Position numbers and translations under genes: made by a program
Part shown: positions 4,750 through 63,176 of the stretch, in pieces
Numbering within the stretch: the stretch's first letter is position 1
Layout of the letters: each line of letters opens with the position of its first letter
Virus record (IMG/VR): IMGVR_UViG_3300023179_006747
Location: 112 to 64,111 of that record
Source: a virus
Taxonomy: Duplodnaviria; Caudoviricetes
DNA length: 64,000 nucleotides
Direction: 5' to 3' (one strand)
Notes under the pieces: model-generated
The model's input: the letters and a program-made list of their open reading frames with translations, nothing else
What the model was told of the DNA's origin: nothing
The model's database searches: none

Positions 4750-4817
4750 TTTTTAGAAAAATACCAATTTACTGCTATACCAATTCCTATTACTATACAT
4801 ATAATTGTTTGTAGCAT
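4746..4817 (-). CDS. 23-aa single-TM micro-protein MLQTIICIVIGIGIAVNWYFSKK
   Basis: ATG lies 8 nt after the promoter TTGACT-N17-TAAGAT (4826-4854). Its TGA overlaps the dCMP deaminase ATG (ATGA). Confidence 0.6.
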   Translation of the reverse strand: MLQTIICIVIGIGIAVNWYFSKK

Positions 4818-4825
4818 AAGATTAT

Positions 4826-4891
4826 ATCTTAAATCTTTTTTATTTTTAAGTCAATTATTTTCTTGATTCTTTATAAAGAATAGTTTAACAT
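4826..4891. promoter_or_regulatory. Divergent sigma70 promoter pair
   Basis: Minus strand: TTGACT(4854-4849)-N17-TAAGAT(4831-4826). Plus strand: TTGATT(4863-4868)-N17-TAACAT(4886-4891), 6 nt before ATG 4898. Confidence 0.7.
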
Positions 4892-4897
4892 AATGAA

Positions 4898-40121: not shown

Positions 40122-40135
40122 TATATCATAAATAA

Positions 40136-44335: not shown

Positions 44336-44339
44336 TATT

Positions 44340-45710: not shown

Positions 45711-46426
45711 TAGATAAAAAAATAAAAAATTTTATCAAAAATCATTCTTTAAAAAATAATCCAAAAGAAAGTTGTGGCTTTATTGTTCAAGATAATGAAA
45801 TTTTTAAATGTATTCCTTGTGAAAATATAGCTGAAAATTCAATAGAAAATTTTAAAATTTCACCTAAAGAGTATTTAAATATTAAAAATAAATATAAAAA
45901 AATATTTTATATCTATCATAGTCATACAAATAATAATGAAAATTTTTCTCCAGCAGATATATCTTGTTCAGAAGGCCTTTGTTTGCCAATTATAATGTAT
46001 AGTTTAAATAGTAATATATTTAAAATTTATGAACCAATAAATATTAATAAATCTTATATTGGAAGATATTTTCAAATAGGAAAATATGATTGTTATACAT
46101 TAATTAAAGATTTTTTGAAAAATGAATTAAATATAGATATTTCAGCGATAATTACTGATTATACAGATTTTATTGATGCTCAAAATGTTTTTAATAAAAA
46201 TTTATCTTTAAATTTTTTAGAAAAAAAAGGATTTAAATTAATAGAAAATAAAGAATCTTTAGAAAAAAATGATATATTGATTTTACACAGTAATTTAGGT
46301 AAACATTTTGCTCTTTACCTTGGAAATGATAAAATATTACATCAACCAATGCTTAGTTTCTCAAAAATAGAAAATTATTGTAATTTTTATAAAAGGCATA
46401 CTGAATTAGTATACAGAAAGATTTAA
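45707..46426 (+). CDS. Tail assembly protein (lambda gpK-like, JAB plus NlpC/P60 domains)
   Basis: PKESCG, YHSH..S..D, DCYTL and HFALYLG..KILH motifs. Confidence 0.9.
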   Translation: MIDKKIKNFIKNHSLKNNPKESCGFIVQDNEIFKCIPCENIAENSIENFKISPKEYLNIKNKYKKIFYIYHSHTNNNENFSPADISCSEGLCLPIIMYSLNSNIFKIYEPININKSYIGRYFQIGKYDCYTLIKDFLKNELNIDISAIITDYTDFIDAQNVFNKNLSLNFLEKKGFKLIENKESLEKNDILILHSNLGKHFALYLGNDKILHQPMLSFSKIENYCNFYKRHTELVYRKI

Positions 46427-46427
46427 T

Positions 46428-47207
46428 ATGATAAGGGTAAATTTACATGGTAAATTGGGAGAGGATCTTGGCGAATCTTGGGAACTTGATGTCTCAACTG
46501 TATCTGAAGCGCTTCGAGCTATAGATATTAATACTAAACAATTAAGAAAATGGCTTATAGATTATAAAGATGAATATGAGTATGAAATTTTAGTTAATAA
46601 TAACAATCTTTTTACTGAAAATCCAAATTTTAAAACTATTCAAGATATTAAAAATTCAGAACTATTTTTAGACATAAAAGAAAAAATACAAACAATTGAT
46701 ATTGTTCCATCTATTATTGGATCTGGTGCTTTTTTAAAAATAGCTGTAGGTGCAGTTGCAGTTATAGGAGCAATCGCAGCAGTAGCTTTTACAGGTGGAT
46801 TAGCTTCTCCATTTGTTTTACCAGCACTTGCGGTTGCTGTAGCTGGTTTAGGATTAATCGCAGCAGGAACTAGTGAATTGCTGTCTAAACCACCACCAAG
46901 TGTTCCGTTTACAGCGCAACAAACTAATCCAATAGAAGGCCAAGGAGAAGCTGGAGGAGCAACATCCTATCTTTTTAATGGACCAGTAAATACAGTAGGC
47001 GAAGGTGGGCCAGTTCCAGTCGGATATGGACAACTTATTGTTGGAGGAAATAATGTTTTTAGTAGTTATGATATAATATATAGAGCTTATGTTTCTGATT
47101 TTACCACCGACACACTTCAAGCTTATTCTCAAGGCGATAGTCAATACATATTTAACAGCAGATGCTATTTAATAGATCAAAATCCATTAAATACTTTACC
47201 ATTTTAA
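46428..47207 (+). CDS. Tail assembly protein (lambda gpI-like)
   Basis: LHGKLG, EALRAI, hydrophobic Gly/Ala segment and SYLFNGPVNT..EGGPVPVGYG motif. Confidence 0.9.
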   Translation: MIRVNLHGKLGEDLGESWELDVSTVSEALRAIDINTKQLRKWLIDYKDEYEYEILVNNNNLFTENPNFKTIQDIKNSELFLDIKEKIQTIDIVPSIIGSGAFLKIAVGAVAVIGAIAAVAFTGGLASPFVLPALAVAVAGLGLIAAGTSELLSKPPPSVPFTAQQTNPIEGQGEAGGATSYLFNGPVNTVGEGGPVPVGYGQLIVGGNNVFSSYDIIYRAYVSDFTTDTLQAYSQGDSQYIFNSRCYLIDQNPLNTLPF

Positions 47208-47211
47208 TTTT

Positions 47212-50200
47212 ATGGGAAATCCTAATTTATACGCAGATGGTTTAAATTTTCTTTTGTTTCCTGGAAATATTGGACTTGGTACAGCTGGATATAATTTTCC
47301 AGAAAGCATAGCTCAAGATGATGGTGGTGGAGCAGGAAATATATCATTGAGTTTTAGTGGAAGTATAATTCCTTATCAAAATACAACTAAAGCTGTAGAT
47401 TGGTTTAGGGGTCCTAGTGGATTTCAATCCAGATTTACTCCATTAGCAGTATTAACTGGTACACTATATAGAAGATTTGACGATTTTACTTTACGTTTTG
47501 CAAATCCACCTGGAGCACCGAGTTTAAAAACAATATTTGGTGTTAGTAATGATTCTAATGTAGAAGCAGGAACAGCACCTCAAGAAAATGGAGTATATTT
47601 AACAGAAAGATTTAAAAATGGTAGAGCTTTTAATTCCATTTCTCAAGTTAATATATTAGATTTAATTTCAGAAGGACCGATTGAAGGTTTTGTATCTGGA
47701 TTATATATTTATAATATTAGTGGTAAAACTACTGGAGACATAGGATACACAAGCGTAACTTTTCAACCATTTGAACAAACCTACAGCAATCCAGAAACAA
47801 GATCAATATATTGGAATGATACACCAATTACAGATCTTGCAGGATATTATAATTTTCAATATGCAAATTATAAATATACATATGGCGAAAAAACAAATGA
47901 TCATACAGTATATAATCCATATTTAAATCTTTATGAAGACCGAAAAGATTACTTTGGTCAACAAGTTGATAAAAATAGAATTCCATTGCAAACATCTGTA
48001 ACAAAAAGTATTAATGAAACTTTATATGGCTTTTACGTAATAAGTGGAAATAATCAAATATTAACACCAAAAACTTATTATGTATATAATACAGATATTT
48101 CTTCTTTAAAGATAAATATTAAAATAAATAATTTATTTGAAACAATTTTAACTGGTTTAAATGCTGGTGATGTAATGCAACAAAAATTAACATTAAGATT
48201 TGTTATTTATAGAATTTTAAAAGATGGACAATTAGTTCAAGTTGATACTTCTAAATATTATCCTTATATATCATCTTATTATTCTCAAGACGATATTCTT
48301 CTACAAGGAAAAATTCAAAGTAATCCAACAATGATTACTTATGAAATAATGCTTAGACCTTATGCAGAAAATAGTCCTTGGTTTGAAATTTTTCCAAATC
48401 AAATTGGATGGGCAATAGATATAACTAAAAGAACAAGAGAAGCTATAGGTGCGGGATTAAACAATTCAACAAGCATAGATAGTATTACTGAAGTTTATTC
48501 TGATCGTTTTGTTTATCCAGATGCAGCGCTAGTTTATTCCAAATTTGATGCCAGATATTTTAATGACATTCCATCTAGAAGTTACGAACTTAAATTATTA
48601 AAAGTCAAAATTCCAATTAATTACGATCCAATTACAAGAAATTACTCTGGACCATGGAATGGACAATTTAAAGTAGCTTGGACTGATAATCCTGCTTGGT
48701 GTTTTTATGATTTAATTACAAATAATAGATTCGGATTAGGAAAATTTATTGATGCAAGTTTAACTGATAAATGGACTTTATATGAAGTTGGTCAATATTG
48801 CGATCAATTAGTATCAGATGGAGTTGGTGGTTTAGAGCCTAGATTTAGATGCAATTTATACATGAATACCAAAGAAGAAGCATACAAAGTTTTAAACGAC
48901 ATGGCAAGTGTTTTTAGAGCTATTATTTATTATTCAGCTGGTCAAATAACAGTAGCTCAAGACTCATTAAAAGAACCAATATATCTTTTCAATAATAGTA
49001 ATGTAATAGATGGAACATTTAATTATTCTGACGCCTCTAAAAAGGCAAGAAAAACTGTAGCGATTGTAAGATATAATGATGAAAATAATAATTACAAACC
49101 TGGAATAGAATATATCGAAGACAAAACTTCTATATTGAAATACGGAATACGAGAAACAGAAATTGCAGCATTTGGTTGCACAAGTCAAAATCAAGCAAGA
49201 AGAGTTGGAAAATGGTTGTTGCTTACTCAAAATACAGAAACAGAATTAGTTGATTTCCAAGTTGGTTTAGAAGGTCATTATTTAAGACCTGGAGATGTTA
49301 TTTCAGTTTATGATCAATACAGAAAAAATCAATCATATGCAGGAAGAACATTAGAACTAACTAGTGGATATGCAATACTAGATATACCTTATGATTATGC
49401 TAATACTTATGCAATTACTGGTGTTAATATTAATAATTCATTTGCATTTAATATATTAACTCCAACTTATAATTTAAATTTTGGAACACAACTTGGCGAT
49501 CTTTATGCTACTGGTTTTTCTGATATTACATCTTCTGGAATAACAGGATTAAATAGTTCATTTATTAGAAGAAGTCAATTACAATCAATCACAGTAAATA
49601 ATCCACAAAATTATATAACTAGTGGATCTGGAATATACTCTAACAATGTAAGACTTAATTTTCCAACTAGCTTAAAAATTAATAATTATAGTTTACCACA
49701 AAATACAGTTTGGAGTATAGATATAAATACTTCTGGCTATGCAATCGCAGGAATTAATACTAGATCTCAAATTAACAACCCAAGTAATACTCTATATCCA
49801 GGATATTATTTAGAGTCATATCTTAATAAACCTAAAAAATATAGAGTATTAAATATTAGCGAAAAAGAAACAGATACATTTAATATTAATGCTCTAGAAT
49901 ATAATGATCAAAAATATACAAATATTGATAATTTAGCAACTTTAGTAAATGTTCCAGTAAGACCACCTTCTCCAGTTGCTCCATCTGTATTTTTAAGTGG
50001 AATATTTAGAGATCCAAATAAAAGTTTTAGTGATGGTTATTGTGCAACAACTCCTTGTAATGGAACAATTTATACTACAAATCAAGGAGGAATCAATAGT
50101 ATCATGTATAATATTCAACCTCCACCAAATAATTCTGCAAATAGTTTATATTATATTTATGTTAAACCATTTAGTGATTTCACTAGCTCAACCCAAACTC

Positions 50201-50442
50201 CACAAGTATTTTTGGCTAATGTACTATCGCCAACAAATATAAGAACTGGTTTAACTCCTAATGATTGGATTAATGGAACAATTCCCCCTTTCTTAACTCC
50301 AACTGGTGCTGGAACTTATTATTTTAGAATTTTTGCAGAAAATAACGTTGGAGAAAGATCCAACCCAGTTAATATATCATATAATTTAACTAATCAAGCT
50401 TCTGTATTTAGCGTACAAGCTTCTGGATATAACGTATATTAA
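47212..50442 (+). CDS. Central tail fiber / tip attachment protein (lambda gpJ-like)
   Basis: DLISEGPIEG, KVKIP.NYDP, WNGQFK.AWTDNPAW, EPRF.CN, GCTS..QA.R and LRPGDVI motifs. Confidence 0.93.
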   Translation: MGNPNLYADGLNFLLFPGNIGLGTAGYNFPESIAQDDGGGAGNISLSFSGSIIPYQNTTKAVDWFRGPSGFQSRFTPLAVLTGTLYRRFDDFTLRFANPPGAPSLKTIFGVSNDSNVEAGTAPQENGVYLTERFKNGRAFNSISQVNILDLISEGPIEGFVSGLYIYNISGKTTGDIGYTSVTFQPFEQTYSNPETRSIYWNDTPITDLAGYYNFQYANYKYTYGEKTNDHTVYNPYLNLYEDRKDYFGQQVDKNRIPLQTSVTKSINETLYGFYVISGNNQILTPKTYYVYNTDISSLKINIKINNLFETILTGLNAGDVMQQKLTLRFVIYRILKDGQLVQVDTSKYYPYISSYYSQDDILLQGKIQSNPTMITYEIMLRPYAENSPWFEIFPNQIGWAIDITKRTREAIGAGLNNSTSIDSITEVYSDRFVYPDAALVYSKFDARYFNDIPSRSYELKLLKVKIPINYDPITRNYSGPWNGQFKVAWTDNPAWCFYDLITNNRFGLGKFIDASLTDKWTLYEVGQYCDQLVSDGVGGLEPRFRCNLYMNTKEEAYKVLNDMASVFRAIIYYSAGQITVAQDSLKEPIYLFNNSNVIDGTFNYSDASKKARKTVAIVRYNDENNNYKPGIEYIEDKTSILKYGIRETEIAAFGCTSQNQARRVGKWLLLTQNTETELVDFQVGLEGHYLRPGDVISVYDQYRKNQSYAGRTLELTSGYAILDIPYDYANTYAITGVNINNSFAFNILTPTYNLNFGTQLGDLYATGFSDITSSGITGLNSSFIRRSQLQSITVNNPQNYITSGSGIYSNNVRLNFPTSLKINNYSLPQNTVWSIDINTSGYAIAGINTRSQINNPSNTLYPGYYLESYLNKPKKYRVLNISEKETDTFNINALEYNDQKYTNIDNLATLVNVPVRPPSPVAPSVFLSGIFRDPNKSFSDGYCATTPCNGTIYTTNQGGINSIMYNIQPPPNNSANSLYYIYVKPFSDFTSSTQTPQVFLANVLSPTNIRTGLTPNDWINGTIPPFLTPTGAGTYYFRIFAENNVGERSNPVNISYNLTNQASVFSVQASGYNVY

Positions 50443-50445
50443 TTT

Positions 50446-51861
50446 ATGAAAGTAAAAAATTTAAATTTAACATTAGAGTGGGAAACTTTAAGAAGTATTC
50501 CTAATGAAGTAGAAGTAGACCAACAATTTCCTTCTTATAATGTAAAAGTAAAAAATAAAGATAACACTTTACTATATCAAGTTCTAGAATCAAAAGATTA
50601 TGAACCAATCACAGAATACTCTTGGGCGAATCATGAATTTGCAAAAAAACCAAAATTACAAGTTGAAATTCTTAAAAACAAGGCTAAAAATTTATTTAAA
50701 TATGATTTTGAAAACAATTACTTTAAATATAAAGAATTAAGTAATAAACTTGGTTTTTTTAAAGATTTAATATTTGAAGTAGATTACAACAATGATGGTA
50801 AAGGAGATTTTCAATTAAATGTAGAATATGCTGAAATTGAGAAGCTAGATAAAAATATTTTATTTAATAAGATTTACCGCAGTAGCGATTACCTTACTGT
50901 AAAACTACTTATAAATAAAGAATATTTTAAACAACAAGAAGTCTATTCGTTACTTATATTAAGTGAAGTTTCAAACAAATTAGTTAAAAATAAAAAACTA
51001 ACAAATTTATTTACTGAAAAAGTTGAAGAAAAATGGCTTGATGTAAATGATTCAACGGCACTATTAACAATACCTTTTATTGAAAGTGATATTGTTGAAA
51101 TATCTGAAAACTTAAATATCAAAGTTATTCCACTTAATTATCTTCAATCTGAATTATATAAGTTTTTGAGACCAAGAGAATCGCAAGAAGACATTAATAA
51201 TCTATACGAAGAATACTTTGCTAATCAAACATTTAATATTGGCAAAATATATAAACAATCTGTAAATAATGAAACTGTAGTATTTTATCAAAATTACTTA
51301 TATTTATTTAATAATGAAAGCTTAAATTCAAATAGTTTAAATTCAGATTTATCAATTAATGATATGGTATTTAATAGTTATTTCCCACTTTTAAATAAAG
51401 ATCAAACAGATAAAACTATATGCTTATCTAATGATTTAAATACAGATGATGTGCTTGATAATCATTATAACCTACAAAAGGGATATTTAGGCTTTTATGG
51501 TAAAGATTCAACTTCTTATGAAGATGTAGCTATTGACTTAGATTATCTTCAAAATCAAGGGGTACTTCAAGCCAAAATCACTGAAATCGAAGAAAATAGC
51601 AATACTTGCAATATTTATATTGAATATATAACCACTTTTTATAATAATGAGAAGTTCTATATAGAAACTAGTAATAATCTCAAATATATTGAAAAATATA
51701 AGACAAATATTGATAATAAGGATTATATCACTTTATTATTTAAATATTCTTATGATTTACAAGCTTTAAATGAATTTTTAAACGAAAATCCTTCTATCAA
51801 TAAATCCCAAATTATATCAGATAAAGATTTAATTAACTTTTCAGCTAAGTTAATATTATAA
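50446..51861 (+). CDS. Hypothetical protein
   Basis: 471-aa ORF directly after the gpJ-like gene. Confidence 0.7.
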   Translation: MKVKNLNLTLEWETLRSIPNEVEVDQQFPSYNVKVKNKDNTLLYQVLESKDYEPITEYSWANHEFAKKPKLQVEILKNKAKNLFKYDFENNYFKYKELSNKLGFFKDLIFEVDYNNDGKGDFQLNVEYAEIEKLDKNILFNKIYRSSDYLTVKLLINKEYFKQQEVYSLLILSEVSNKLVKNKKLTNLFTEKVEEKWLDVNDSTALLTIPFIESDIVEISENLNIKVIPLNYLQSELYKFLRPRESQEDINNLYEEYFANQTFNIGKIYKQSVNNETVVFYQNYLYLFNNESLNSNSLNSDLSINDMVFNSYFPLLNKDQTDKTICLSNDLNTDDVLDNHYNLQKGYLGFYGKDSTSYEDVAIDLDYLQNQGVLQAKITEIEENSNTCNIYIEYITTFYNNEKFYIETSNNLKYIEKYKTNIDNKDYITLLFKYSYDLQALNEFLNENPSINKSQIISDKDLINFSAKLIL

Positions 51862-51862
51862 C

Positions 51863-54800
51863 TTATCTTTGTTGTTTTTTGTAAATTGCTGAACTTAATA
51901 ATCCGCCAGGTCTTTGTTGTTCTGTTATAACTCTTATTACTTGAGTTTTGATTTTTTCTGCCAAGTCTCTATTATTGTTTGCTTGTGAGTTTTGATTTGT
52001 TTGATCAGATTGAGTGCTTTCGGTAGTGCTACCTTGCTGATTCATGTTAACAACAACACTAACGTTATTTGTTGGAGAATAGTTTCCAGAAGTCTCTCCT
52101 GTAGTGCTAGTACCAACTCCACCACCATCAGCAAATTTTTTAACTCTACCACTATTTAAATCATCAAAGAATTTTTTACCATATAAATTAACAGCTTCTT
52201 TTCTCATTACGAATTCACCACCCATAAGCATCGCAGGAATATTGTCTGCACTACTTCCACCAGAAGCAAATCTTCTAGGTTGTCCACCGTTAGCTAAAAA
52301 TGCTAATCCTGCTCCAGCTAAACCTAAGCCAAAAGACATATAAGCTCCTCTGCTCTTTGCGCTTTTTTGGGTATTATATTGATTTTGTATTTCTTGATTT
52401 AATCTAATATTTTCATCAAGTGCTTGTCTATTGGATTCATTAACTCCTTCAACATATTGAAGATAACTAATAAGAGTTTGTTCTCTTTCTTGTCTTATTC
52501 TATTTTGTGGATTGTTTGGATCAAGAATAGCTTGTAAACTTAAATTAGAACTAAAAACATTTCCTCCACCAGTTGGATATGATGCATCATTATATCTATA
52601 GGTGTTTGTTCCAAGATAAGAAGATTCACCACCATATGCAAATCCTTTGATTCTGCCACCATTGATCATATGTAATAAACCAGAACCATATTTATCTACA
52701 GCGCTTTTTCTAATAACATATTCTCCACCACTTAACATAGCTGGAATATCATCTCTTGTTCCTGATCCACCCATTACATTACCACCAGTAGAATAACCTT
52801 TAATTAATCCACCTTTTGATTTACCTCCAAATAATCCACCAAATAAGCCACCAAATAATCCTCCACCACCCCCTCCACCTCCAAATATATTACTTGTGCT
52901 ACCAAAAAGTTTACCAAAAATTAAATTAGTACTAAATTCAAGAGCCAATTGTTGTATTTTGTCGCTAATATTAAGTGCCATTTTTGTGAAAGCATCGCTA
53001 GCAGTAGCAGTTCCATTAGCAAAAGATAAGAAAGCATTATTAAATTCACTTTTAATTGTTCGCGCTGTATCTGCTGCGCCAAGTTGAGCTTCTCTATACG
53101 AATCTTCGGCACGATTATCAAATTGATCAAAAAATGCTAGACCAATGTCTCCAAGACTCCTTCTTCCACCTAATATTTGTTTTTCTCTGGTGGCTTGTTG
53201 ATCTGCTCTATATTGATCTGCAAAAACTAATCCTCTTTCTCTTTGGCTTCTACTTACCAAACGTTCTTGAGCTCCTTCGACTCCTATACTAAATTTATCT
53301 AAGTCTCCCGCTGCTTGAGCAAGAGCTTCATTTACTTGAGTAATATATTTTGCTTCAACTTTTTTTCTTTCTGTTTCATTTAATATTGATTTTCTAAGTC
53401 CTTCTTGAAGATCTAAAACTTTTGCAGTTGCAATTCTATTTGCATTTAAATCTTTGTTTGCATCTAATACTGCTTTACCATATTCTTTTAATGCTTGTGG
53501 ACTTAAATTATCTTTAAATCTTTTAAGTGCTTCAGCGCTAGATGAAACATCTCCTGCTTGTTCAGCTCTTCTTAAAATAGCATCTCTTGTATATCTTACT
53601 ATTTTTTCCATTTCCTTGGCAAGACCTTTTGTATCTATGCCTAATTCTTTTAATTTTTTACTTAATTCAGTTGTACCTTGGTCAAGATCATCAAAAGAAA
53701 GTTTTTCTAATTCAGTTAAAGTTTTATTTACAGTTTCTTTCTCTACTCCAGCTTTTAACAATAATCTTCCAATAGGATCTAAAATTGCTACAGTTTCTTT
53801 TATTAAATTTTGTTCTTCTGGTGGAATAATTGATCCTTGCGCGCCAGTAATAGTTGGAGCAAAAACTTGATCTTCTGACATGCCTCCAACACTTAATTTT
53901 GTTCCTATAATAGGAGTACCTTGACCATATTTTGCATTTCTGGCTTGAAGATTTGTTATTACAGTTCCTAATTCTTGTAAAAATTCATCTCGTAATTTTG
54001 GATTACTAATAACTTCTCCTCGAATAGATGTTCCCTTTGTAGTTCTAAAATTTAAAATTGCATCTGTGAATTTTTGGAGTTCATCTCCTTTTAATGATTT
54101 GTCTGCTGTAATTTGTAATATACTTGCTAAATTATCTGTATTTATCGCAGAAGTTTGTAGTGCGATTTGAATTTGCCCTAAAGTTTGAGTAATATTATCA
54201 AAATTTCCAGTAGAAACTGCGTCTCTTAAAGATTTTTGTAATGTAGATGGGGTATTAGCTAGTATTGTAGCTAAACTTTCATTACTATCAGATAGTATTT
54301 TTTGTTTTTCTTCGCTACTTAAAGTTTCATCTTTCAATTTTTCTAAAACTTGATTATAAGATTGTACTGCTGATGAAAATGTTTCTAATTTATCTTTATT
54401 ACTTTCAGAAACAATTATAGCATCTTTTGTTGTTTGATCTAAACCATTTAATGAGTTTACTAAACTTAATAAAACTCCAGTTAAAAATGCTCCACCAGCA
54501 ACTTTTTTTCCTCCACCAGATAATAGAGCTGATCCAGCATAACCTGCTCCTTGAACTACAGCTCCAACTCCTGCTCTTGCTTTTTCATCTGTTATACTAT
54601 CTTGAATTTTTGATCCTAATCTATCTATTGCTATAAATAATGCTGCACTTAAAACTTGTTGAAGAATAAATCTGACTGCAGTTGCTCCTCCTGCTTCAGC
54701 TGCTCCTGCTGCTAATAGTGGCAAAATAAAGTTTGGAACAAAACCTTTTGATGCGCCAGCGCTTTTTGCTCTATTTGAACCATATCTTCTTATACCTTGA

Positions 54801-57616
54801 CCCAATCCCATTGGTTCATCTTTTGTATTATAAACTCCTAAACCAAGAGGATTCGAGGAAGAAGTTAATCTAGAATCTCTGCCTATTCTTATTCTTGATA
54901 TTGGCGTTCCAGCACCAGCTTCTCTTCCAATTGCATCATTTAATGCGGTGAAATTAGGAATAAATCCACCAAAAGCTTTTCTAGTTTTAGCTGTGCTATA
55001 TTTTCCAAATTGCATCATACCCTGTTCTTTATAAATTTTATTTGCAAAACTTTGTAAATTACCTTCAGATAATCCACTTTTAAAATCTGCTAGAAGCGTT
55101 GTAAAACCAAAAAGTTTTTGTAAATGTCCTAAATTTCTTCCTCCTCTAACATCAAAATCTCCAAATCCCTTTGGTGTTTCTAATTCAGTATATTTTAATG
55201 CTGTTTTTATTCCAACTTCGAAAGCAGAACCAACTGCAGCGCGAACTGCTCCATATGCTCCTTTTTCTCCAGACCTTGTAAATTCTGCAGCTAAAGTTGA
55301 TCTATTTACGCTTCTTCCTAAAGGTTTTAATGTATCAATAAAACTACTTGTATTATCTAGAATACTATTAGTTATAGTTGTGCCTAATCTTATTTTATCG
55401 TCAGTTAAATCTCCTTCTAACTTATTTCTTTTCATTCCATAAACTGGAACATTTGTAATTGCAAATTCTGAAGATTTACCTTTTGGAGAAAATGGTCCAA
55501 CTAATTTTCTTGAAGATCCTATAAATGGTAATAATATACTAGCAATATTACTAACATCTAAGGGTTTAACTCCTGCAACTGGACCACGAGTAGTTCTACT
55601 CAATACTCCTTGTAATTGAGCTTCACTAACTGTTTCTCCATTTATTTTATATGATTTTGTTCCAGGAATTTGATATTTTTTAGCATCTGCTAAGGATTTA
55701 ATTCCTGCAGATCTAATTATTCCTGCTGGTCCAGTAGCAAAATTAGGAATGAATCCACTACTTACATATGGATTAAATCCATATACTGAATTAAATTGAC
55801 TTTGATAATTTTTTCCAGCAGTACTTCCCATAGGAGGCATAATTGCTGGTTGGCTCATTCCAGGAAATCTTTTAACTTTTTCTGCTGAATTATAGGTAAC
55901 AGAACCTTCTCCAGGAATATTCATTTTACGAACATATCCAGGAATATATCCACCAGCTAATGCTCCTAAAATTTCTGAACTAGCAAAATTAGGAATAAAT
56001 CCTCCACTTTTTGCCTTTAATGTTCCACCTTTAGCAGTAACTCCTCTACCAATTAATCCACCAGTTAATGAAGATGATAATGCAGCAGCTCTTTCTCTTT
56101 CTATTGTTTGCTGTCTAATAATATTTAATATTTTAGTTTCTACATCCAAAACGCTTATTTCTTTATTGTAAACTGATTGAACAAGAGCCGTCTCTTGAGA
56201 TAAGACTTGATTTATTTTTGCTTGAATTGCTGCTCTTTCTTCGGATTTTGTATTTAAATTTAAAATTGTTTGTAAAGATTGAGCTGCAAATTTTCCTAAA
56301 TTAAAAACTAATTTTGTAATAACAGCTGTTAATAAAATAACTCCAGGACCACTTATGAAACTTCCAATTCCTTCTAATATACCTTTTCCTATTTTACTTC
56401 CTATTCCTTTGCCATCAATATCAATACTTTCTAATCCTTTATTAAGTAGATTAAGTAAATTTTCTATTGTTGGACCAAAAGATATTCTACCAATATCTGA
56501 TCCTACTTTAGTTAAGTTAACGAATGTTTTATTAATTAATGAAGATAATGTTTGATTTAATGCTTCATTTCTTGTGATAGCTTCATTTGTGGCACTTGAT
56601 GCTACTTTTAATGCATTTCCATAAGTAGAATATTGTTTCTCTAAATCACCTAAAGCAGCTTTTAAAATATTAATTTGGAAAACACCACCAACTAATTCTC
56701 CTACTTGAGCTTTTTGTGAATCTGCTAAATTATTAAATGTATTAGAAAGATTAGATAAAACTTGTATAGCTGGTAATGTATCACCCTCTAAAGTTCTTAC
56801 TTGAATACCTAGTTCTTCTAATTGATCAAGAGTTTCTGTTCTTTGAATTCTAGTGAAAATAGTTTTTAAAGAGTTACCAATTACTGCACCACCTCTAGCA
56901 GTAGTTTGCTGAACACTTGTTACAATTGCTAATAATTGATCAAAATCAACTCCTGCGTCAGCTGCAGATGATCCTACTCGTTTAATAGCTTCTGCAAGAT
57001 CAGCGCTACTAACTGCAAATGCAGCATCAACATTTGCTAATTTATTAATAATAGTTGTAGAATCTAATCCAGCTTTATTAAAACTATTAATTGTGGCTGT
57101 TAAAGCTTCTACTGCACTTACTGTATCAAGTCCACTAAGACGAGTTAAGATAAGAGCATCTCTTGTTCTTTTTAATGTTTCTTCTAAACTCAAACCTTGA
57201 CGAGAAAGTTCTGTGGCGGCTTGAGCAACGACATCGAAACTTTGACCTGTATTTTTAGCAATATCAAATAAATTGCTACCAAATTGATTTAATGTCTTAG
57301 AGCTAACATTTAATATAACATTAATATCTGTTAGAGATTTTTGAACATCTATTGTGCTTTTAATTAAAGATGTAAAAGCTTTTTCTACAGTATATATTAA
57401 TCCAGCACTGGCACCGAATGCGATAACACGAGCATTAGATGCATCTAAAGATTTTTGAAACTCATTTGCAGCGCCAGTAATACGTCCAAGTGGCTGAGTA
57501 AAGGCTTTTTCATTTAATCCTTTAAATTTAAAATCACGCGCCAAGGCGCTCTGAATATCTCTTTCGAGTTGCCTTGTATCCGCTCCTACTGAAATTGAAG
57601 CTGAAGTCCTAGCCAT
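51863..57616 (-). CDS. Tape measure protein (TP901-type core) with internal modules
   Basis: 1917 aa; core A.ELSRQG...AVDAAFAVS..DLAEA...RGGAVIGNSLKTIFTRI; FAxGG / DxIPAMLxxGE modules; downstream of tube and chaperone genes. Confidence 0.92.
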   Translation of the reverse strand: MARTSASISVGADTRQLERDIQSALARDFKFKGLNEKAFTQPLGRITGAANEFQKSLDASNARVIAFGASAGLIYTVEKAFTSLIKSTIDVQKSLTDINVILNVSSKTLNQFGSNLFDIAKNTGQSFDVVAQAATELSRQGLSLEETLKRTRDALILTRLSGLDTVSAVEALTATINSFNKAGLDSTTIINKLANVDAAFAVSSADLAEAIKRVGSSAADAGVDFDQLLAIVTSVQQTTARGGAVIGNSLKTIFTRIQRTETLDQLEELGIQVRTLEGDTLPAIQVLSNLSNTFNNLADSQKAQVGELVGGVFQINILKAALGDLEKQYSTYGNALKVASSATNEAITRNEALNQTLSSLINKTFVNLTKVGSDIGRISFGPTIENLLNLLNKGLESIDIDGKGIGSKIGKGILEGIGSFISGPGVILLTAVITKLVFNLGKFAAQSLQTILNLNTKSEERAAIQAKINQVLSQETALVQSVYNKEISVLDVETKILNIIRQQTIERERAAALSSSLTGGLIGRGVTAKGGTLKAKSGGFIPNFASSEILGALAGGYIPGYVRKMNIPGEGSVTYNSAEKVKRFPGMSQPAIMPPMGSTAGKNYQSQFNSVYGFNPYVSSGFIPNFATGPAGIIRSAGIKSLADAKKYQIPGTKSYKINGETVSEAQLQGVLSRTTRGPVAGVKPLDVSNIASILLPFIGSSRKLVGPFSPKGKSSEFAITNVPVYGMKRNKLEGDLTDDKIRLGTTITNSILDNTSSFIDTLKPLGRSVNRSTLAAEFTRSGEKGAYGAVRAAVGSAFEVGIKTALKYTELETPKGFGDFDVRGGRNLGHLQKLFGFTTLLADFKSGLSEGNLQSFANKIYKEQGMMQFGKYSTAKTRKAFGGFIPNFTALNDAIGREAGAGTPISRIRIGRDSRLTSSSNPLGLGVYNTKDEPMGLGQGIRRYGSNRAKSAGASKGFVPNFILPLLAAGAAEAGGATAVRFILQQVLSAALFIAIDRLGSKIQDSITDEKARAGVGAVVQGAGYAGSALLSGGGKKVAGGAFLTGVLLSLVNSLNGLDQTTKDAIIVSESNKDKLETFSSAVQSYNQVLEKLKDETLSSEEKQKILSDSNESLATILANTPSTLQKSLRDAVSTGNFDNITQTLGQIQIALQTSAINTDNLASILQITADKSLKGDELQKFTDAILNFRTTKGTSIRGEVISNPKLRDEFLQELGTVITNLQARNAKYGQGTPIIGTKLSVGGMSEDQVFAPTITGAQGSIIPPEEQNLIKETVAILDPIGRLLLKAGVEKETVNKTLTELEKLSFDDLDQGTTELSKKLKELGIDTKGLAKEMEKIVRYTRDAILRRAEQAGDVSSSAEALKRFKDNLSPQALKEYGKAVLDANKDLNANRIATAKVLDLQEGLRKSILNETERKKVEAKYITQVNEALAQAAGDLDKFSIGVEGAQERLVSRSQRERGLVFADQYRADQQATREKQILGGRRSLGDIGLAFFDQFDNRAEDSYREAQLGAADTARTIKSEFNNAFLSFANGTATASDAFTKMALNISDKIQQLALEFSTNLIFGKLFGSTSNIFGGGGGGGGLFGGLFGGLFGGKSKGGLIKGYSTGGNVMGGSGTRDDIPAMLSGGEYVIRKSAVDKYGSGLLHMINGGRIKGFAYGGESSYLGTNTYRYNDASYPTGGGNVFSSNLSLQAILDPNNPQNRIRQEREQTLISYLQYVEGVNESNRQALDENIRLNQEIQNQYNTQKSAKSRGAYMSFGLGLAGAGLAFLANGGQPRRFASGGSSADNIPAMLMGGEFVMRKEAVNLYGKKFFDDLNSGRVKKFADGGGVGTSTTGETSGNYSPTNNVSVVVNMNQQGSTTESTQSDQTNQNSQANNNRDLAEKIKTQVIRVITEQQRPGGLLSSAIYKKQQR

Positions 57617-57677: not shown

Positions 57678-58688
57678 CTAAATGCCATGCATTTTCATTA
57701 AATCTTCCATAGTTAAGGTTCCACCTTTTTTCAATGCTTCTTTATGTAGACTTATGCCATTTTCATCTTTACCTATCTTGGCTAGATCTTCTTTTTTGGC
57801 TCCTACTATAGAAGTAGCAATTGCGCCTTCTGTTTTCTTTTGATTGTTTTCATTTTTACTTAATACTTCTTCTACATTTTTACTGCTTTCTAACCAATCT
57901 ATAAGTTTATCTGGATCTTCATAATATTCATCTGGTGGTTTATGTTTAGCTTCAGATAATGCATTTTTAAAATATCTAGCATAACCAAAAACTTCCATTT
58001 GATAAAAAGTTAAATAAACTATAGGCTTTCCATACATATAATATGGATTATCATCTGATAGATTAAATAAACTAAGATAATATGAGGATAATGCTATTTT
58101 TTTGAGATTTTTATCAACATAATTTTTATTCATGTTATTATAGATGTCTAGAATTTCAGATAAATCTCTATTTTCAAGCTCATCAAACTCTTGTTCTGAA
58201 AAGAATTTATTCTTTAAATCTTTATCTTTAAATAAAGAATTAAACATATAGTATTCATTTACTTTTTTATTAGCATAATCCTCAACAGTAAAACCTAGCA
58301 AATCTTTTCTTTCTGCAATCAATGTGAATAATTTAATATTTTCTTCATTAATTTGTTTATTGATCTGAGCGATATCATCATTTCTAAATAGTTTAGACTT
58401 AGTTTGTTTTAAACCAGAAATATAAGATTTTATCTTCTTTATCTCTTCGTTTTTTTCGTTTGACCATAGATTTTCTTTTATAATATATTCTTCTTTTTGC
58501 TGTTCTGTTGGAAGTCCATTTCTCTTGGCTTTTTGTATAAATTCTTGCTTGATATGATCAATATCGCCAGAATCAATACTAGTATTATGTTTAAAATATA
58601 ACTTATTATTTTTATAATAAGCTATTGTATAGCCTTTTAATATATCAACAAAAAGAATCCTAAGCTTGTTTTTATCTATTGTGTCCAA
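57678..58688 (-). CDS. Hypothetical protein, putative tail assembly chaperone (gpT position)
   Basis: Helical charged protein immediately upstream of the tape measure gene; TTG start. Confidence 0.55.
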   Translation of the reverse strand: MDTIDKNKLRILFVDILKGYTIAYYKNNKLYFKHNTSIDSGDIDHIKQEFIQKAKRNGLPTEQQKEEYIIKENLWSNEKNEEIKKIKSYISGLKQTKSKLFRNDDIAQINKQINEENIKLFTLIAERKDLLGFTVEDYANKKVNEYYMFNSLFKDKDLKNKFFSEQEFDELENRDLSEILDIYNNMNKNYVDKNLKKIALSSYYLSLFNLSDDNPYYMYGKPIVYLTFYQMEVFGYARYFKNALSEAKHKPPDEYYEDPDKLIDWLESSKNVEEVLSKNENNQKKTEGAIATSIVGAKKEDLAKIGKDENGISLHKEALKKGGTLTMEDLMKMHGI

Positions 58689-58691
58689 TCA

Positions 58692-59450
58692 TTATTCCTT
58701 AGTTTTATCTTCTTTTTGTGTCATTCCAAGAAGTTTTTCAAATTCATCTTGAGAAGCGGCTCTGCCAATATACCAGAAACTTATCAAATAAAGAAGTTTT
58801 TGTAAAGCTAATTTTTCTAAATTGCTATCACTTTCTTCAATCTCATCATATCTTTTAAGTTTTTCTTCATAAGAACCTTCATTGAATAGTTCTTTAAATT
58901 TTTTGTCATCACCTTGAATAAGGCTAAGTTGAAGAACCCACCACATGATTGTTTTATTTCTTGCTCTATTTTCTGCGGTTTGTTCAAAAAGATTAGCTTG
59001 AGCCATTTCATATTTTTGCAATCTATCGCGAGCATTATTCATTTTTTCTATAACGCTTTTAATGTTATCTTTCTCTTCTTCTGTGCGAATAGATTCTTCT
59101 TTTATAGATAACTTTTGAAATTCATTTTGAAGATTGAAAAATTCAATATAAAGTTCATTATACTCCTTTTGTTCTTCATCGCTTAGAACTCCACCATCAT
59201 TATTAAATCTTTTAGCTAATAGAGCGCGAGTTAATAGTCCAGCTTTAATTCCTTCTGATAGTTTGACTCCATAAAATAATTCTGCCTCATCAAATAAACT
59301 TCTTGTTGGTTTTTTAATAGCTAATTTAACTGGCACGGTAGTTTTAACCTTAGAAGTAATCTTTACTTCTTCGCCTTTTTCGTTAGTAGAAACATCTACT
59401 TTTTCAACTTCTTTTTCTTGAAAGATATCAAATTCAAACATTGTTTTCAT
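58692..59450 (-). CDS. Hypothetical protein, putative tail assembly chaperone (gpG position)
   Basis: Coiled-coil, acidic; lies between the tube and tape measure genes. Confidence 0.55.
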   Translation of the reverse strand: MKTMFEFDIFQEKEVEKVDVSTNEKGEEVKITSKVKTTVPVKLAIKKPTRSLFDEAELFYGVKLSEGIKAGLLTRALLAKRFNNDGGVLSDEEQKEYNELYIEFFNLQNEFQKLSIKEESIRTEEEKDNIKSVIEKMNNARDRLQKYEMAQANLFEQTAENRARNKTIMWWVLQLSLIQGDDKKFKELFNEGSYEEKLKRYDEIEESDSNLEKLALQKLLYLISFWYIGRAASQDEFEKLLGMTQKEDKTKE

Positions 59451-59722
59451 ATTTTTTCTCCATTATTATTAATCAAATCTTGTAAATAGCTTTTAATTTT
59501 ACCATAATAAACTACTCCACCAATTGTTTTAATGAATTGATGCTTTTTATTGTCATCCCAATTTTGATAGTTTCTAATAAAATTAGGATTTTTAAATGTT
59601 GTTAAACTTGGCCTTAAGATTCCAAAATTATCCTTTAAGCTTTTTTGTATGCTTTGAACAGAAAGATTTCCTTCAATTATTTCATCTATAGGAAAATTAT
59701 AATTTAATTTCTTTGATTTCAT
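59447..59722 (-). CDS. Hypothetical protein
   Basis: 91-aa ORF with ATGA coupling on both sides. Confidence 0.65.
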   Translation of the reverse strand: MKSKKLNYNFPIDEIIEGNLSVQSIQKSLKDNFGILRPSLTTFKNPNFIRNYQNWDDNKKHQFIKTIGGVVYYGKIKSYLQDLINNNGEKI

Positions 59723-59943
59723 TTGAGTGTTATATTGATTTTACTGAAACTTTCTTCTATCTCTCTTACAGCATCATTAGCATTATCGAGGACTCTTTTG
59801 CGTATTTTTTGATAAGTTTCATCATTTATATTATAGCCAGAATCGGATAAATCTTCAAGAATAAAAAAGAAATTTTTGTAGATGTTTGTAATTTTCCTCT
59901 TTATCTGAAAAAGAGTAATATCTTTTATAGGATCGTTTTCCAT
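59719..59943 (-). CDS. Hypothetical protein
   Basis: 74-aa ORF (RKRVLD motif); GTGTAA and AAAGG upstream. Confidence 0.65.
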   Translation of the reverse strand: MENDPIKDITLFQIKRKITNIYKNFFFILEDLSDSGYNINDETYQKIRKRVLDNANDAVREIEESFSKINITLK

Positions 59944-59988
59944 AATCTTTTACCTTTATCTAACCCTTTACCTTGACTTGAATTACAC

Positions 59989-60024
59989 AAAAAATAACCC
60001 CCACGAGAACGTGAGGGTTATTTT
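59989..60024 (-). terminator. Rho-independent terminator after the major tail gene
   Basis: Minus strand TAACCCTCACG-TTCT-CGTGGGGGTTA followed by T6, then immediately GTGTAA (59988-59983). Confidence 0.85.
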
Positions 60025-60048
60025 ATAACTTAATTTATGTATTATTTA

Positions 60049-61212
60049 TTAGAATTGTCCGTTGATAAATAATCCATTGTTGGTATCTTGAGGTCCACCA
60101 ATTTGACTTTGCCATGTTAGGGTAACTGTTTTATTGCTACCGATATCAGAACTATATTCTTGACTTACTAACTTAGCACCTTTGATTTTGAACTTAGCCA
60201 TTGTCAATGTGTTGTCACTTGGACTCTTGATTGTTACTGATGGGCTGTATGAGAAGCTGTCATCATTAACCAAGTTAGCTAGGTTACCAGTTACCATATC
60301 AGCTACTTGAGCATCAACACTTAGATTTACTGTTAATGGGAAGTCGATTGGTCTTGTGAAGGCGAATTTATTACCTAGTCTTTGAATTGGAGTACGACCT
60401 AAATCAAAGCTAATATTATAGCTTTGAATATTCATGGTTGTTGTATCTACTCCACCAACTCCAGTTTGAACTTGAATATCTAAAGTAATATCTCCTGGGC
60501 GAAGTGCGCTAATTGCATTTCCACTTCCAATACCAACATTTTGAACTGTTGCTGGTAATGCGTAAAAATTTGTTAAAACTGCGCCATTGGTAGGATTAAC
60601 TGCAGGAATATAATTTCCACTCAAACCTTTTTGGAAATTCATATTCAATCCTTCAACACTTATTGAAGCTGTTGGGAAGTTTCCTACAGATCCTTCAGTT
60701 GAATAAGATGAAATGAATGCGTTACCAATTCCGATAACTCCGTTATTTCCAGATGTTATATCTGTATAACCTACTGCATCATTACCTTCTGGTACTGTAC
60801 GAATAAAGTAATTTCTTTCATCTTGAGTACTATTTAAAATTCCAGAGATAGCTGAAATATTAGAATCTGCACTACCAGAAACTACTGTGAATCCTAGAAT
60901 ATTTTCATTTGAAAGATTTCCTAGAATATAGCTAAAATCTAATGAGACTGTTGGACTGGTTAAAATTACACGATCAATCGCTGCCAATTGTCCGAATTGA
61001 TTAACATCTGTACGATCAACGTTGAAACTGTAATTAGCAGTTTGAATTCTTTGAAGTTGTTTTACTAAATTTCCACTTGCTGCTGGCCATCCGCCTGCGG
61101 CATTTTCATCATTTGTTTTTGTACCATTTACTAGAGTGAAATGATATCCAGTTGCTGGAGATGGTCCAGCGTAAAGAGCTTCTGATTGATAAATTATACG
61201 ATTTCTTGGCAT
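60049..61212 (-). CDS. Major tail (tube) protein
   Basis: Beta-rich, S/T/G/N-rich composition; GGAG RBS, GTGTAA upstream and strong terminator downstream; canonical position. Confidence 0.75.
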   Translation of the reverse strand: MPRNRIIYQSEALYAGPSPATGYHFTLVNGTKTNDENAAGGWPAASGNLVKQLQRIQTANYSFNVDRTDVNQFGQLAAIDRVILTSPTVSLDFSYILGNLSNENILGFTVVSGSADSNISAISGILNSTQDERNYFIRTVPEGNDAVGYTDITSGNNGVIGIGNAFISSYSTEGSVGNFPTASISVEGLNMNFQKGLSGNYIPAVNPTNGAVLTNFYALPATVQNVGIGSGNAISALRPGDITLDIQVQTGVGGVDTTTMNIQSYNISFDLGRTPIQRLGNKFAFTRPIDFPLTVNLSVDAQVADMVTGNLANLVNDDSFSYSPSVTIKSPSDNTLTMAKFKIKGAKLVSQEYSSDIGSNKTVTLTWQSQIGGPQDTNNGLFINGQF

Positions 61213-61268
61213 ATTAGTTATTCTCCATTTATTGTTATTACACCGATTTTTTTATTTTTTCTACTTTT

Positions 61269-62138
61269 TTATTGCCTTGGATATCTATTTTTTGACACCT
61301 CAAAATCAACAAAAGCAGAGTATACATTTCTATTTAAGCTATTGGTAGCATTAAGTAGTCTTGTGTCAGTTTTAGTAACATTTACTTCATTAATATACAG
61401 ATAATCATCAGTATTAGCTTTATTTGCAGTATAATTAATATAATTAAAATTATTATTTGAAGTATTAACAGACCCTAATGAATTAAAAGGCATTTCATTT
61501 GGATATATTAATGGTATTAATTCGCGAGCAGTATCTCTCATTATACTTGTTACAGCATCTAGATTGAATACGCTATCAGCCAATATAATAGCTCTAACAT
61601 TACCTACCGTTTGGTCAAAACCACCAAAAGCAAGAGGTTTATTTTTACCGCCTTGATATTTCAAATATATAACAGGATACGTTTCAGAACCAATTGGCAA
61701 TCCAGTAGGATTTTGATATGTTTTAGGATTAACTTGATATTGAGTTTCAAATAATAAATTTTCTTCTGTTTTACTGGTTAAATATATATTAAAATCTTTA
61801 ACAGCATAATTTCCACTAAGTGCTTTTGTAGGATCCGATATTGGTTGGCTAAAATATAGTTGACCTTCTGCTGCGTTAATTCCACTTAAATTATTTTGCC
61901 CAGGAATTGTAAAAATTCCATTGATATAAACTCCACTTATAATATTTGCGCCAATTATAGAAGAATCTATAACCATTTGCTTTAATGGAGCGCCATATGT
62001 ATAATATCCATAATACATATTAGCAAGAGGATAAAACACACTTTGATAATTAGTATAACCTTGGCCTTTAGTTAAAATTTTATTATCCAACCAAAGTAGC
62101 ATACTAGTCATTAAAATATTATCAAATTGAGGGATCAT
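61269..62138 (-). CDS. Putative tail terminator / completion protein
   Basis: Directly upstream of the tube gene; YPVIY..., PLAFGG and FVDFEV..RYPR motifs. Confidence 0.55.
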   Translation of the reverse strand: MIPQFDNILMTSMLLWLDNKILTKGQGYTNYQSVFYPLANMYYGYYTYGAPLKQMVIDSSIIGANIISGVYINGIFTIPGQNNLSGINAAEGQLYFSQPISDPTKALSGNYAVKDFNIYLTSKTEENLLFETQYQVNPKTYQNPTGLPIGSETYPVIYLKYQGGKNKPLAFGGFDQTVGNVRAIILADSVFNLDAVTSIMRDTARELIPLIYPNEMPFNSLGSVNTSNNNFNYINYTANKANTDDYLYINEVNVTKTDTRLLNATNSLNRNVYSAFVDFEVSKNRYPRQ

Positions 62139-62139
62139 T

Positions 62140-62730
62140 TTATTTTAAATTCTTTATAAAATTATTATAAAGCTCCGTCATATATTTTACTGGTCTATAA
62201 GCTGTAGTTCTAACTTTATTTTTAGATTGAATTCCTCGTCCAGATCTACTAGTTGGAAATAATAATCCATAAACATAATAACCAAAACCAGAAATTCCAT
62301 CTTCTATTCCTTTAACCCAACTTCTACCTCTTTCAAAAGGTAGTGGTGTTGCAGTCTTTATTTCATCCAAAGAAGGAGTAAAAACATTAAATTTTAATTG
62401 AAGACTTTTTTTATCAAAAGTTGAATTTTTATCTAAAAATGTATTTTGTTTTATTAAATTAGTTAAGTCTTCGACTGGTTTATCTTCGCTATCAAATCCA
62501 ATAAATGCAAAAAGATTTTCTTTACCATTTAAAGTTGCGCTTATATTCTCGCCATCTGGTCCTTCATTTAATTCTTTTGATACTGGATGTTCTTCTATTT
62601 CAGTAATATATTGATCTAAATTTTCTTTTAAAATTTCTTGAGCAAAAATAATTGCTTCTTTTTTAAGAGTTTCTTGATATGAATTTGCAATTTCTTCTTT
62701 GATTTGCTTAAAATTAATTTTTGCAGCCAT
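62140..62730 (-). CDS. Putative neck / tail completion protein
   Basis: Position in the head-tail cluster; NLFAFIGF, SWVKGIE and SRSG.GIQ motifs. Start moved to ATG 62730 (track 62760). Confidence 0.55.
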   Translation of the reverse strand: MAAKINFKQIKEEIANSYQETLKKEAIIFAQEILKENLDQYITEIEEHPVSKELNEGPDGENISATLNGKENLFAFIGFDSEDKPVEDLTNLIKQNTFLDKNSTFDKKSLQLKFNVFTPSLDEIKTATPLPFERGRSWVKGIEDGISGFGYYVYGLLFPTSRSGRGIQSKNKVRTTAYRPVKYMTELYNNFIKNLK

Positions 62731-62731
62731 A

Positions 62732-63172
62732 TTATTTTGTTTGCTCCAATCCATATACATAATATGTATTATTTAAATATTTTTTAACAACATCTTCTGT
62801 GATAATATTCCATGTTTTTCCATCAAATTCAAGTTTTATAGTTCTTCCATTTGCAATAAAATCTCTAGCATCTTGTCTAACTTTTAAAGTAACATCTCCT
62901 CTTGCAAAAACTAATTTTAAATCACTATTAACAGCATCTGTGTCTCTTGCGTTATTATAATAAATTCTTCCATTAAAAATTCCAGTTACAGGAATATAAG
63001 TATAATTTACTGCATCCGAACTTGATCCATATCCATATAATGGAGCGCTTTGAACTTGTTCTACAATTCTTATTGGATCCTTATGAATAATAAATGGTCT
63101 AGAAAAATAAGTAAAAAAATCATCATAATCTTGCGAAAAATCTGCCGCAGTTGTTGAGTTTATAAAGCTCAT
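62732..63172 (-). CDS. Putative head closure / head-tail joining protein
   Basis: 146 aa, beta-rich, C-terminal FDGKTW; positional inference. Confidence 0.5.
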   Translation of the reverse strand: MSFINSTTAADFSQDYDDFFTYFSRPFIIHKDPIRIVEQVQSAPLYGYGSSSDAVNYTYIPVTGIFNGRIYYNNARDTDAVNSDLKLVFARGDVTLKVRQDARDFIANGRTIKLEFDGKTWNIITEDVVKKYLNNTYYVYGLEQTK

Positions 63173-63176
63173 AAAA

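Follow-up and report, generated by a model that had tools for sequence, protein, structure and literature searches.

Tape measure proteins and the locus analyzed

Tape measure proteins (TMPs) of tailed phages are usually seen as rulers and channel formers, with an occasional cell wall enzyme; they are ejected at infection and are thought to form the entry channel. In this study, we analyzed the TMP encoded by a virus of the Caudoviricetes (IMG/VR record IMGVR_UViG_3300023179_006747). The stretch of DNA analyzed, which we call the window (64,000 nucleotides, positions 112 to 64,111 of the record), covers nearly all of the 64,111-base record, the completeness of which is 42% by CheckV. The TMP gene (P0001; 51863..57616, minus strand) is the longest open reading frame (ORF) and encodes 1917 amino acids (aa). 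The middle of the protein holds three modules fenced by four copies of a short junction peptide, GF[IV]PNF, and the middle module, referred to below as the cassette, is exchanged between otherwise near-identical TMPs. An earlier note on this DNA had described the TMP as a polyprotein in which a nuclease-like cargo is bracketed by GFIPNF repeats, and its observation of the repeats and of the residue motifs is confirmed here. A literature search returned no paper on GFIPNF, nothing relevant on restriction endonuclease-like TMPs, and, among the matches listed, nothing relevant on tape measure polyproteins.

TMPs with embedded functional domains are already known, and the peptide-fenced, swapped array is a variant on these. 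A peptidoglycan-hydrolase motif is embedded in the TMP of the mycobacteriophage TM4 (Piuri and Hatfull 2006, PMC1796659), which is similar in that a functional motif unrelated to the ruler lies inside a TMP; the TM4 motif has relatives among cell wall hydrolases, whereas the module described here lies between repeated peptides and lacks relatives outside TMPs. In the Thermus phage P23-45, gp96 is a TMP fused to a virion RNA polymerase, for which the authors propose action at the entry pore (PMC10770324). The likeness lies in the combination of a TMP with a nucleic-acid enzyme; on the other hand, the enzyme of gp96 is N-terminal and is a two-barrel RNA polymerase, and the available text describes neither junction peptides nor cassette exchange. 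In actinobacterial contractile injection systems, the TMP-related effectors of the Sle1 type (PMC13277306) likewise join an exchangeable functional domain of diverse structure to a TMP-like carrier, but they are the cargo of a cellular injection system, with the variable domain at the C-terminus and, in the available text, no mention of a repeated fence peptide. TMP regions are also reported to affect dependence on ManYZ, and TMP mutations are reported to escape the SNIPE defense (bioRxiv 10.1101/2025.11.03.685801).

The pb2 protein of T5 is cut after R1127 into pb2* and pb2C, between a hydrophobic stretch and the muralytic domain (PMC10038345). This processed TMP has a similar layout of hydrophobic and accessory segments, and its site (...NSFVPR/AEGG, cut at the slash) shares F-V-P and the following Ala with GFVPNF-A. 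T5 has a single site, whereas the peptide is repeated here, and the downstream domain of T5 is a metallopeptidase. The likeness of the two sites amounts to three residues, and the junction in the present TMP is only a putative cut site.

The ORF is assigned as a TMP because it matches both the Pfam family PF10145 (PhageMin_Tail; aa 120-306, 56699..57259, minus strand; E = 7.4e-29, 101.5 bits against a cutoff of 33.2) and 16 PHROG tape-measure families. As a very long protein encoded among tail genes that passes the curated PF10145 cutoff, it belongs to the TP901 family of TMPs, with which it shares the N-terminal PF10145 region, its length, hydrophobic segments, Gly-rich C-terminal motifs, and the position among the tail genes. 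The PF10145 region is the sole part with relatives in isolated phages; aa ~42-377 show 25-30% identity to SPbeta-like and other phages by tblastn. In contrast to the TP901-1-family TMPs, the middle 440 aa, which comprise the four peptides and three modules, have no counterpart by tblastn among 50,697 phage records.

Junction peptides and module boundaries

The four junction motifs, all on the minus strand, are GFIPNF at aa 539-544 (motif 1; 55985..56002), aa 621-626 (motif 2; 55739..55756), and aa 884-889 (motif 3; 54950..54967) and GFVPNF at aa 958-963 (motif 4; 54728..54745). Motif 1 was located by pattern matching and by its homologs; motifs 2 and 3 are the 5' and 3' boundaries of the cassette, where DNA homology ends and restarts, respectively, and a block of DNA homology ends at motif 4. 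These are the places given in the earlier note, whose ranges include one additional flanking codon. A degenerate fifth copy, GYIPGY, is found at aa 556. When the TMP was shuffled 20,000 times, a single motif appeared in 1 shuffled protein and two motifs appeared in 0, with an expectation of 6.1e-5 per protein. When the window was translated in all six frames, GF[IV]PNF was found only in the TMP ORF. Copies 1 to 3 are near-identical in DNA, with copies 1 and 2 sharing 20 of 21 nucleotides (nt), and the plus strand under 54728-56005 contains no ORF of at least 70 aa.

In a search with aa 520-980, 7,996 candidates were scored, of which 879 matched at E ≤ 0.001. All of the 120 homologs listed are metagenomic TMPs of 1375-2665 aa, and at least four motifs are found at the same places in 119 of them; the other one has three. 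A fifth motif together with an extra module is present in 3 of the 120. In the wider family, represented by 145 proteins at 50% identity, the number of motifs per protein ranges from 0 to 9 (at least one in 116 proteins, none in 29). The extended consensus in this family is A-x-G-[FY]-[IV]-P-N-[FY]-A, in which the Gly and Pro are conserved at 100% and the Asn at 97%, and a fuller form of the junction reads [YF]-A-x-x-G-[FY]-[IV]-P-N-[FY]. The peptide also precedes unrelated modules in long relatives, and it recurs 3-9 times per protein, in distant relatives (P0136, P0179, P0204, and P0261) as well. The repeats are real, conserved module boundaries, which is the role that the earlier note had given them.

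The junction peptide may be a variant of a more general punctuation motif of TMPs, at which a group of shorter relatives hints. These TMPs (P0139, P0143, P0152, and P0163; ~1500-1650 aa) contain the same cassette without GF[IV]PNF; they have ...IPRFN.G... upstream of the cassette and [RK]RY[AS]xGG further upstream.

Two small modules flank the cassette. The first (m1; aa 545-620, 55757..55984, minus strand) is Gly/Pro-rich, includes the GYIPGY copy, and is conserved in the homolog alignment, with many positions at least 90% conserved across 102 distinct sequences. The second (m3; aa 890-957, 54746..54949, minus strand) is also conserved in that alignment (RE..AG, NPLGLGVYNTKDEP.GL.QG) and is almost invariant across the family. 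The possibility that m1 and m3 are repeats of one unit was rejected (hhalign probability, 0.3%). Upstream of the array lies hydrophobic segment 1 (aa 413-445, 56282..56380, minus strand; Kyte-Doolittle 19-residue mean, 1.92), and hydrophobic segment 2 (aa 978-998, 54623..54685, minus strand; Kyte-Doolittle, 1.74) comes right after motif 4. The arrays of the family are net positive in 207 of 207 proteins and are hydrophobic inside in just 11 of 203, and 156 of 203 members have a hydrophobic segment (at least 1.6) in the 160 aa that precede the array.

Exchange of the middle cassette

The cassette (aa 627-883, 257 aa; 54968..55738, minus strand) was characterized by AlphaFold2 modeling, profile searches, and comparison of identities. 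It is basic, with a pI of 9.97 and 37 Lys and Arg against 21 Asp and Glu residues, and it contains GSAFE (aa 796-800), GDFDV (aa 819-823), and LADFKS (aa 842-847); the length, charge, and motifs all agree with the description in the earlier note. In four relatives (P0031, P0034, P0033, and P0035), the identity to the query is 91-94% over the 300 aa that precede motif 1, 87-93% over m1, and 87-91% over m3, whereas it is just 17-24% over the cassette. In 20-residue windows, the identity falls from 90-100% to 10-25% directly after motif 2 and is back to 90% at motif 3. Comparing homologous TMPs for variable cargo between conserved repeats, as the note had suggested, hence yields a variable cassette with kept flanks.

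The same boundaries are seen in DNA among 38 distinct related IMG/VR loci (43 were fetched, and 5 duplicates were dropped). The block of DNA homology ends at nt 1877-1885 of the coding sequence (CDS) in 34 of the 38 loci, motif 2 being at nt 1861-1878, and spans this point in 3. Homology restarts at nt 2646-2650 in 16 of the 38, where motif 3 begins at nt 2650, and inside the cassette, at nt 2030-2120, in 10. A further block ends at nt 2884-2895 in 19 of the 38 loci, motif 4 ending at nt 2889, and 4 loci span it. One locus (L031) has 94% DNA identity up to nt 1880 and no match thereafter, and its DNA stops ~160 nt later. TMPs that are nearly identical elsewhere have exchanged the middle cassette, and the breakpoints coincide with junction peptides 2 and 3. 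The swapping of cargo by recombination proposed in the earlier note is therefore observed in so far as cassettes are replaced at the repeats, but the swapped modules belong to a single domain family that is restricted to TMPs and keeps a fixed place; they are not cargo from outside.

The cassette family and its invariant residues

A profile of 15 cassettes was searched against 1.84 billion representatives and matched 313 clusters at E ≤ 1e-3, 208 at E ≤ 1e-10, and 54 at E ≤ 1e-30. Nearly all of the 150 matches listed (of the 313) are long TMPs with the module at approximately aa 540-950. No convincing stand-alone copy outside TMPs was found in this search, the short matches being fragments or having full-length cluster mates. 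A search of proteins of 143-552 aa, in which the best 7,999 word-sharing candidates were scored, gave one match, a 216-aa piece on a 972-base contig. In addition, tblastn with aa 520-980 against the 50,697 phage records gave no match, and no isolated phage with this region was found there.

BLAST separates 121 cassettes into three groups, with 77, 38, and 6 members. Comparison of the profiles of these groups (types A, B, and C) gives weak links (A-B, 66%; A-C, 86%; B-C, 41%), and the G-x-x-F-E, D-F, and [DE]-x-K positions align across the three types, which cannot be linked by BLAST. By single linkage, 255 cassettes all join at 30% identity or more and form 40 clusters at 40%. The cassettes make up one fast-diverging domain family that is found in TMPs only.

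The conserved core of the cassette (aa 786-860; 55037..55261, minus strand) was defined by residue counts in 146 rows, i.e., the query and the family representatives. The core positions are G786, G789, A790, G796, F799, E800, F821, D822, F836, D844, K846, S856, and K860. Among the 146 rows, G796, F799, D822, and K846 are present in all 146, K860 is present in 145, F836 in 144, and S856 in 134. Position 800 is Glu in 135 rows and Asp in 11, and position 844 is Asp in 133, Glu in 12, and Met in 1.

Predicted fold of the cassette

The canonical PD-(D/E)xK core takes an alpha-beta-beta-beta-alpha-beta arrangement with a β-hairpin between the motif strands. The AlphaFold2 model of the cassette, built from a 31-sequence alignment, has a mean predicted local distance difference test score (pLDDT) of 83.8 and a predicted template modeling score (pTM) of 0.65, and 155 of the 279 residues have a pLDDT of at least 90. 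In the numbering of the model, β-strands are formed by residues 39-48, 76-89, 107-112, and 226-229 and helices by residues 124-145, 156-162, 169-190, 213-220, and 235-253. The cassette is thus predicted to fold autonomously as an alpha/beta domain. E800 (model residue 184) is located in helix 169-190, and D822 (model residue 206) lies just before a short strand of residues 207-208; D844 (model residue 228) is in strand 226-229, followed by K846 (model residue 230) and then by helix 235-253. In the model, the local secondary structure around these four residues fits a PD-(D/E)xK core, and the linear order of helix E, D, and (D/E)-x-K followed by a helix, which is typical of these nucleases, is strongly conserved in the cassette. 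However, helix 213-220 lies between the D822 strand and the DxK strand, in the place of the hairpin of the canonical fold.

A Foldseek search against 350,542 PDB chains gave 0 matches at E ≤ 0.001 (best E, 0.65; template modeling [TM] score, 0.17), and the BFVD structure search gave no match (best E, 0.18). The module has a confident predicted fold without a solved relative; the lack of a fold match is not proof of a new fold. Pfam searches of 15 cassette members at E ≤ 10 gave no nuclease family, PDB profile searches with two alignments (A1 and A2) gave 0 matches at E ≤ 10, and a PADLOC search of the module returned nothing. In hhalign, the probability of a match to the Mrr_cat alignment (30 genomic matches), the sole nuclease family compared profile to profile, was 0.3%. 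The ESM Atlas returned only unnamed leads, all below 0.9, for the whole module and no usable match for the core, which was compared with named clusters only.

The cassette has the residue motif of the PD-(D/E)xK superfamily (helix E, D, and (D/E)-x-K) and matched neither a curated model nor a solved member in these searches; it is nuclease-like in its residue pattern only, and we do not class it as a PD-(D/E)xK nuclease. Of the nuclease core described in the earlier note, the E...D...(D/E)xK pattern holds in the 146 rows and in the three cassette types, but no restriction-endonuclease fold is recognizable in the AlphaFold2 model by the PDB and BFVD searches, and no nuclease profile is linked to it. 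The segment itself is modeled as neither helical nor disordered, and it is not invariant across homologs. A Pol-beta-type nucleotidyltransferase signature (G-[AS] ... D-x-D) may also be read from the same residues, although neither a fold nor a profile in support of it was found.

A model of the whole array (aa 525-981), built from alignment A3, in which the cassette types are mixed, has a mean pLDDT of 41.3. The only moderately confident part is m3, with pLDDT means of 63-77 in 10-residue blocks, and it is modeled as a helix, two strands, and a helix.

A fenced module array and the alternatives

The explanation that we favor, and consider probable, is a fenced module array in a TP901-family TMP, in which the fast-diverging, exchanged middle cassette carries a ligand or catalytic site. 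Three non-coiled-coil modules are inserted in the middle of the TMP between the hydrophobic segments at aa 413-445 and aa 978-998, each fenced by the junction peptide in its fuller form. At infection, the basic array would exit the tail with the TMP and, while the DNA enters, refold at or across the cytoplasmic membrane; exposure at the membrane is suggested because TMPs are ejected and because T5 pb2, P23-45 gp96, and the ManYZ and SNIPE observations offer precedents. Behind a Gly/Ala-rich helix, E800, D822, D/E844, and K846, together with S856 and K860, would form a charged cluster that binds metal or phosphate, is possibly catalytic, and acts during genome delivery. Exchange of the cassette would alter a variable host-facing surface and would be driven by host partners or host defenses. 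The junction peptide would serve as the module joint and, by analogy with T5 pb2, may also be a processing site.

The TMP family is large and widespread in the environment (313 representative clusters, 50% identity) and carries a fenced array of autonomous modules. On this explanation, the wholesale replacement of one module between near-identical phages would mark a host-facing function that evolves rapidly inside the tail tube. Should the module prove to be an injected enzyme or a determinant of defense or receptor use, it would add a new layer to host range and counter-defense. The junction peptide, were it a signal, would offer a natural, portable "socket" by which proteins could be loaded into phage tails.

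Several points weigh against the fenced array with an active site. The fold of the cassette has no known relative, so the enzyme reading is carried by the residue pattern alone, and invariant charged residues can also be structural. Because 29 of the 145 representatives have the module without any junction motif, the peptide is not required for the module. Crossovers anywhere in the conserved m1 and m3 flanks would give equally sharp breakpoints and need not fall within the motif. The whole-array model is poor and uninformative on the placement of the motifs, and a downstream hydrophobic segment (within 100 aa) is present in only 73 of 203 relatives.

A bolder form of the proposal treats the TMP as a modular delivery polyprotein, the joints of which would be cut by a phage or host protease or would act in release or translocation. 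The array would be drawn into the host, the cassette would be an enzyme of unseen fold with an E/D/D/K metal site acting on nucleic acid or another phosphate substrate, and its alleles would be traded against defenses. We regard this form as improbable. As a test of a self-processing polyprotein, Pfam searches of this TMP and 14 longer relatives revealed no embedded protease domain; PF10145 was the only family found, apart from one sub-threshold TMP_3 match in one relative, and the extra modules of these relatives otherwise contained no known domain.

The alternative that survives best, although we consider it unlikely, is that the cassette is a noncatalytic domain for host interaction or defense evasion, with an envelope or inner-membrane partner or as the target of a host sensor; swaps would then change specificity, and the charged residues would be structural. 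The confinement of divergence and replacement to the cassette between flanks of 87-94% identity, the continuum of the cassette family with its ~40 clusters at 40% identity, and the lack of a match to a known enzyme fold in the searches above are all consistent with such a domain, as are the reported TMP regions that decide ManYZ dependence and the mutations that escape SNIPE. However, the invariant positions are mostly charged residues or Gly (E, D, D/E, K, K, S, and three Gly) and not a hydrophobic core, a pattern that is more typical of a ligand or catalytic site; moreover, there is no known host partner, and only two real loci were found in binned genomes, both in one metagenome-assembled genome (MAG).

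It is rather more doubtful that the junction peptide is no signal at all, i.e., a conserved module end or structural linker at which recombination is a by-product of the homology of m1 and m3. The conserved flanks offer ample homology for crossovers and the motif is just 18 nt long, although its copies 1-3 are near-identical in DNA, and the representatives with the module and no motif also suit a passive role. Against this role, the peptide recurs 3-9 times per protein, before unrelated modules and in the distant relatives noted above, and some relatives (P0023, P0046, and P0062) have an extra module inserted between two copies of it. The near invariance of its Gly, Pro, and Asn over hundreds of copies is more than a passive linker needs and weakens this alternative.

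We hold it to be improbable that the cassette is a genuine PD-(D/E)xK nuclease that has diverged beyond the reach of fold searches and that is released at PNF/A and injected against host or competitor nucleic acid: the E...D...(D/E)xK pattern kept in all three types, the fitting local secondary structure of the model, the basic character of the module, and the cut of T5 pb2 between its hydrophobic stretch and enzyme domain would agree with it, but the fold and profile searches gave no relative, a helix replaces the hairpin, and the T5 site shares just F-V-P and the following Ala.

C-terminal motifs and genome setting

The C-terminal motif region of the TMP, located by pattern matching (aa 1608-1840; 52097..52795, minus strand), contains four [KR]x[FY][AS]xGG motifs (aa 1608, 1659, 1783, and 1828) and two D-[DN]-IPAML-x-GGE[YF]V-x-RK-x-AV repeats (aa 1624 and 1793). 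Like YAxxGFIPNF, these motifs have an aromatic-small-x-Gly start. In many relatives, this region is where a conserved DNA island (CDS nt ~4480-4957) ends, and because of this the C-terminal motifs may likewise be module boundaries. Directly before them, a glycine run with an LFGG repeat (GGGGGGGLFGGLFGGLFGG; aa ~1583-1600, ~52820-52870, minus strand) was read from the sequence. Among the relatives, a 586-aa protein (P0183) on a 52,672-base contig begins just ahead of a junction peptide, and P0231 and its cluster mate P0273 are each on an 8,229-base contig, perhaps one and the same; in these relatives, the TMP gene may have been split near the array, either naturally or as an artefact.

A motif-pattern scan of the contigs of binned genomes gave 13 stretches, only 2 of which (loci L016 and L024) encode this TMP, both in the MAG mentioned above. 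They are on short contigs of 2.4 and 9.8 kb, and the MAG is labeled Proteobacteria. The two contigs are probably binned phage DNA, and therefore no firm host can be taken from them.

Genes for a DNA polymerase, a DnaB-like helicase, and a UvsX-like recombinase are present in the window, which has a G+C content of ~27%. Its lambda-like tail-tip genes (M, L, K, I, and J) were identified by PHROG matches (phrog_14, 18, 30, 32, and 31) at 43787-50442 on the plus strand. Together with an unannotated 471-aa ORF (43787-51861 in all, plus strand), they converge on the 3' end of the TMP gene (51863-57616, minus strand), and this placement of the tail-tip and TMP genes on opposite strands is an unusual split of the tail module. 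The nine ORFs upstream of the TMP gene (57678-63689, minus strand), where chaperone and tube genes are expected, have no Pfam or PHROG match, and a chaperone pair was not identifiable there by these searches; a weak Phage_tube_2 match, below the cutoff (E = 0.0013), is found instead at 42929-43735. Sugar-related genes at 1259-2344, 4898-6007, 24768-25913, and 38205-41287 include two glycosyltransferase-like genes, one heptosyltransferase-like gene, a nucleotide-sugar epimerase, and a dehydrogenase, and they may serve the modification of DNA or of surface glycans.

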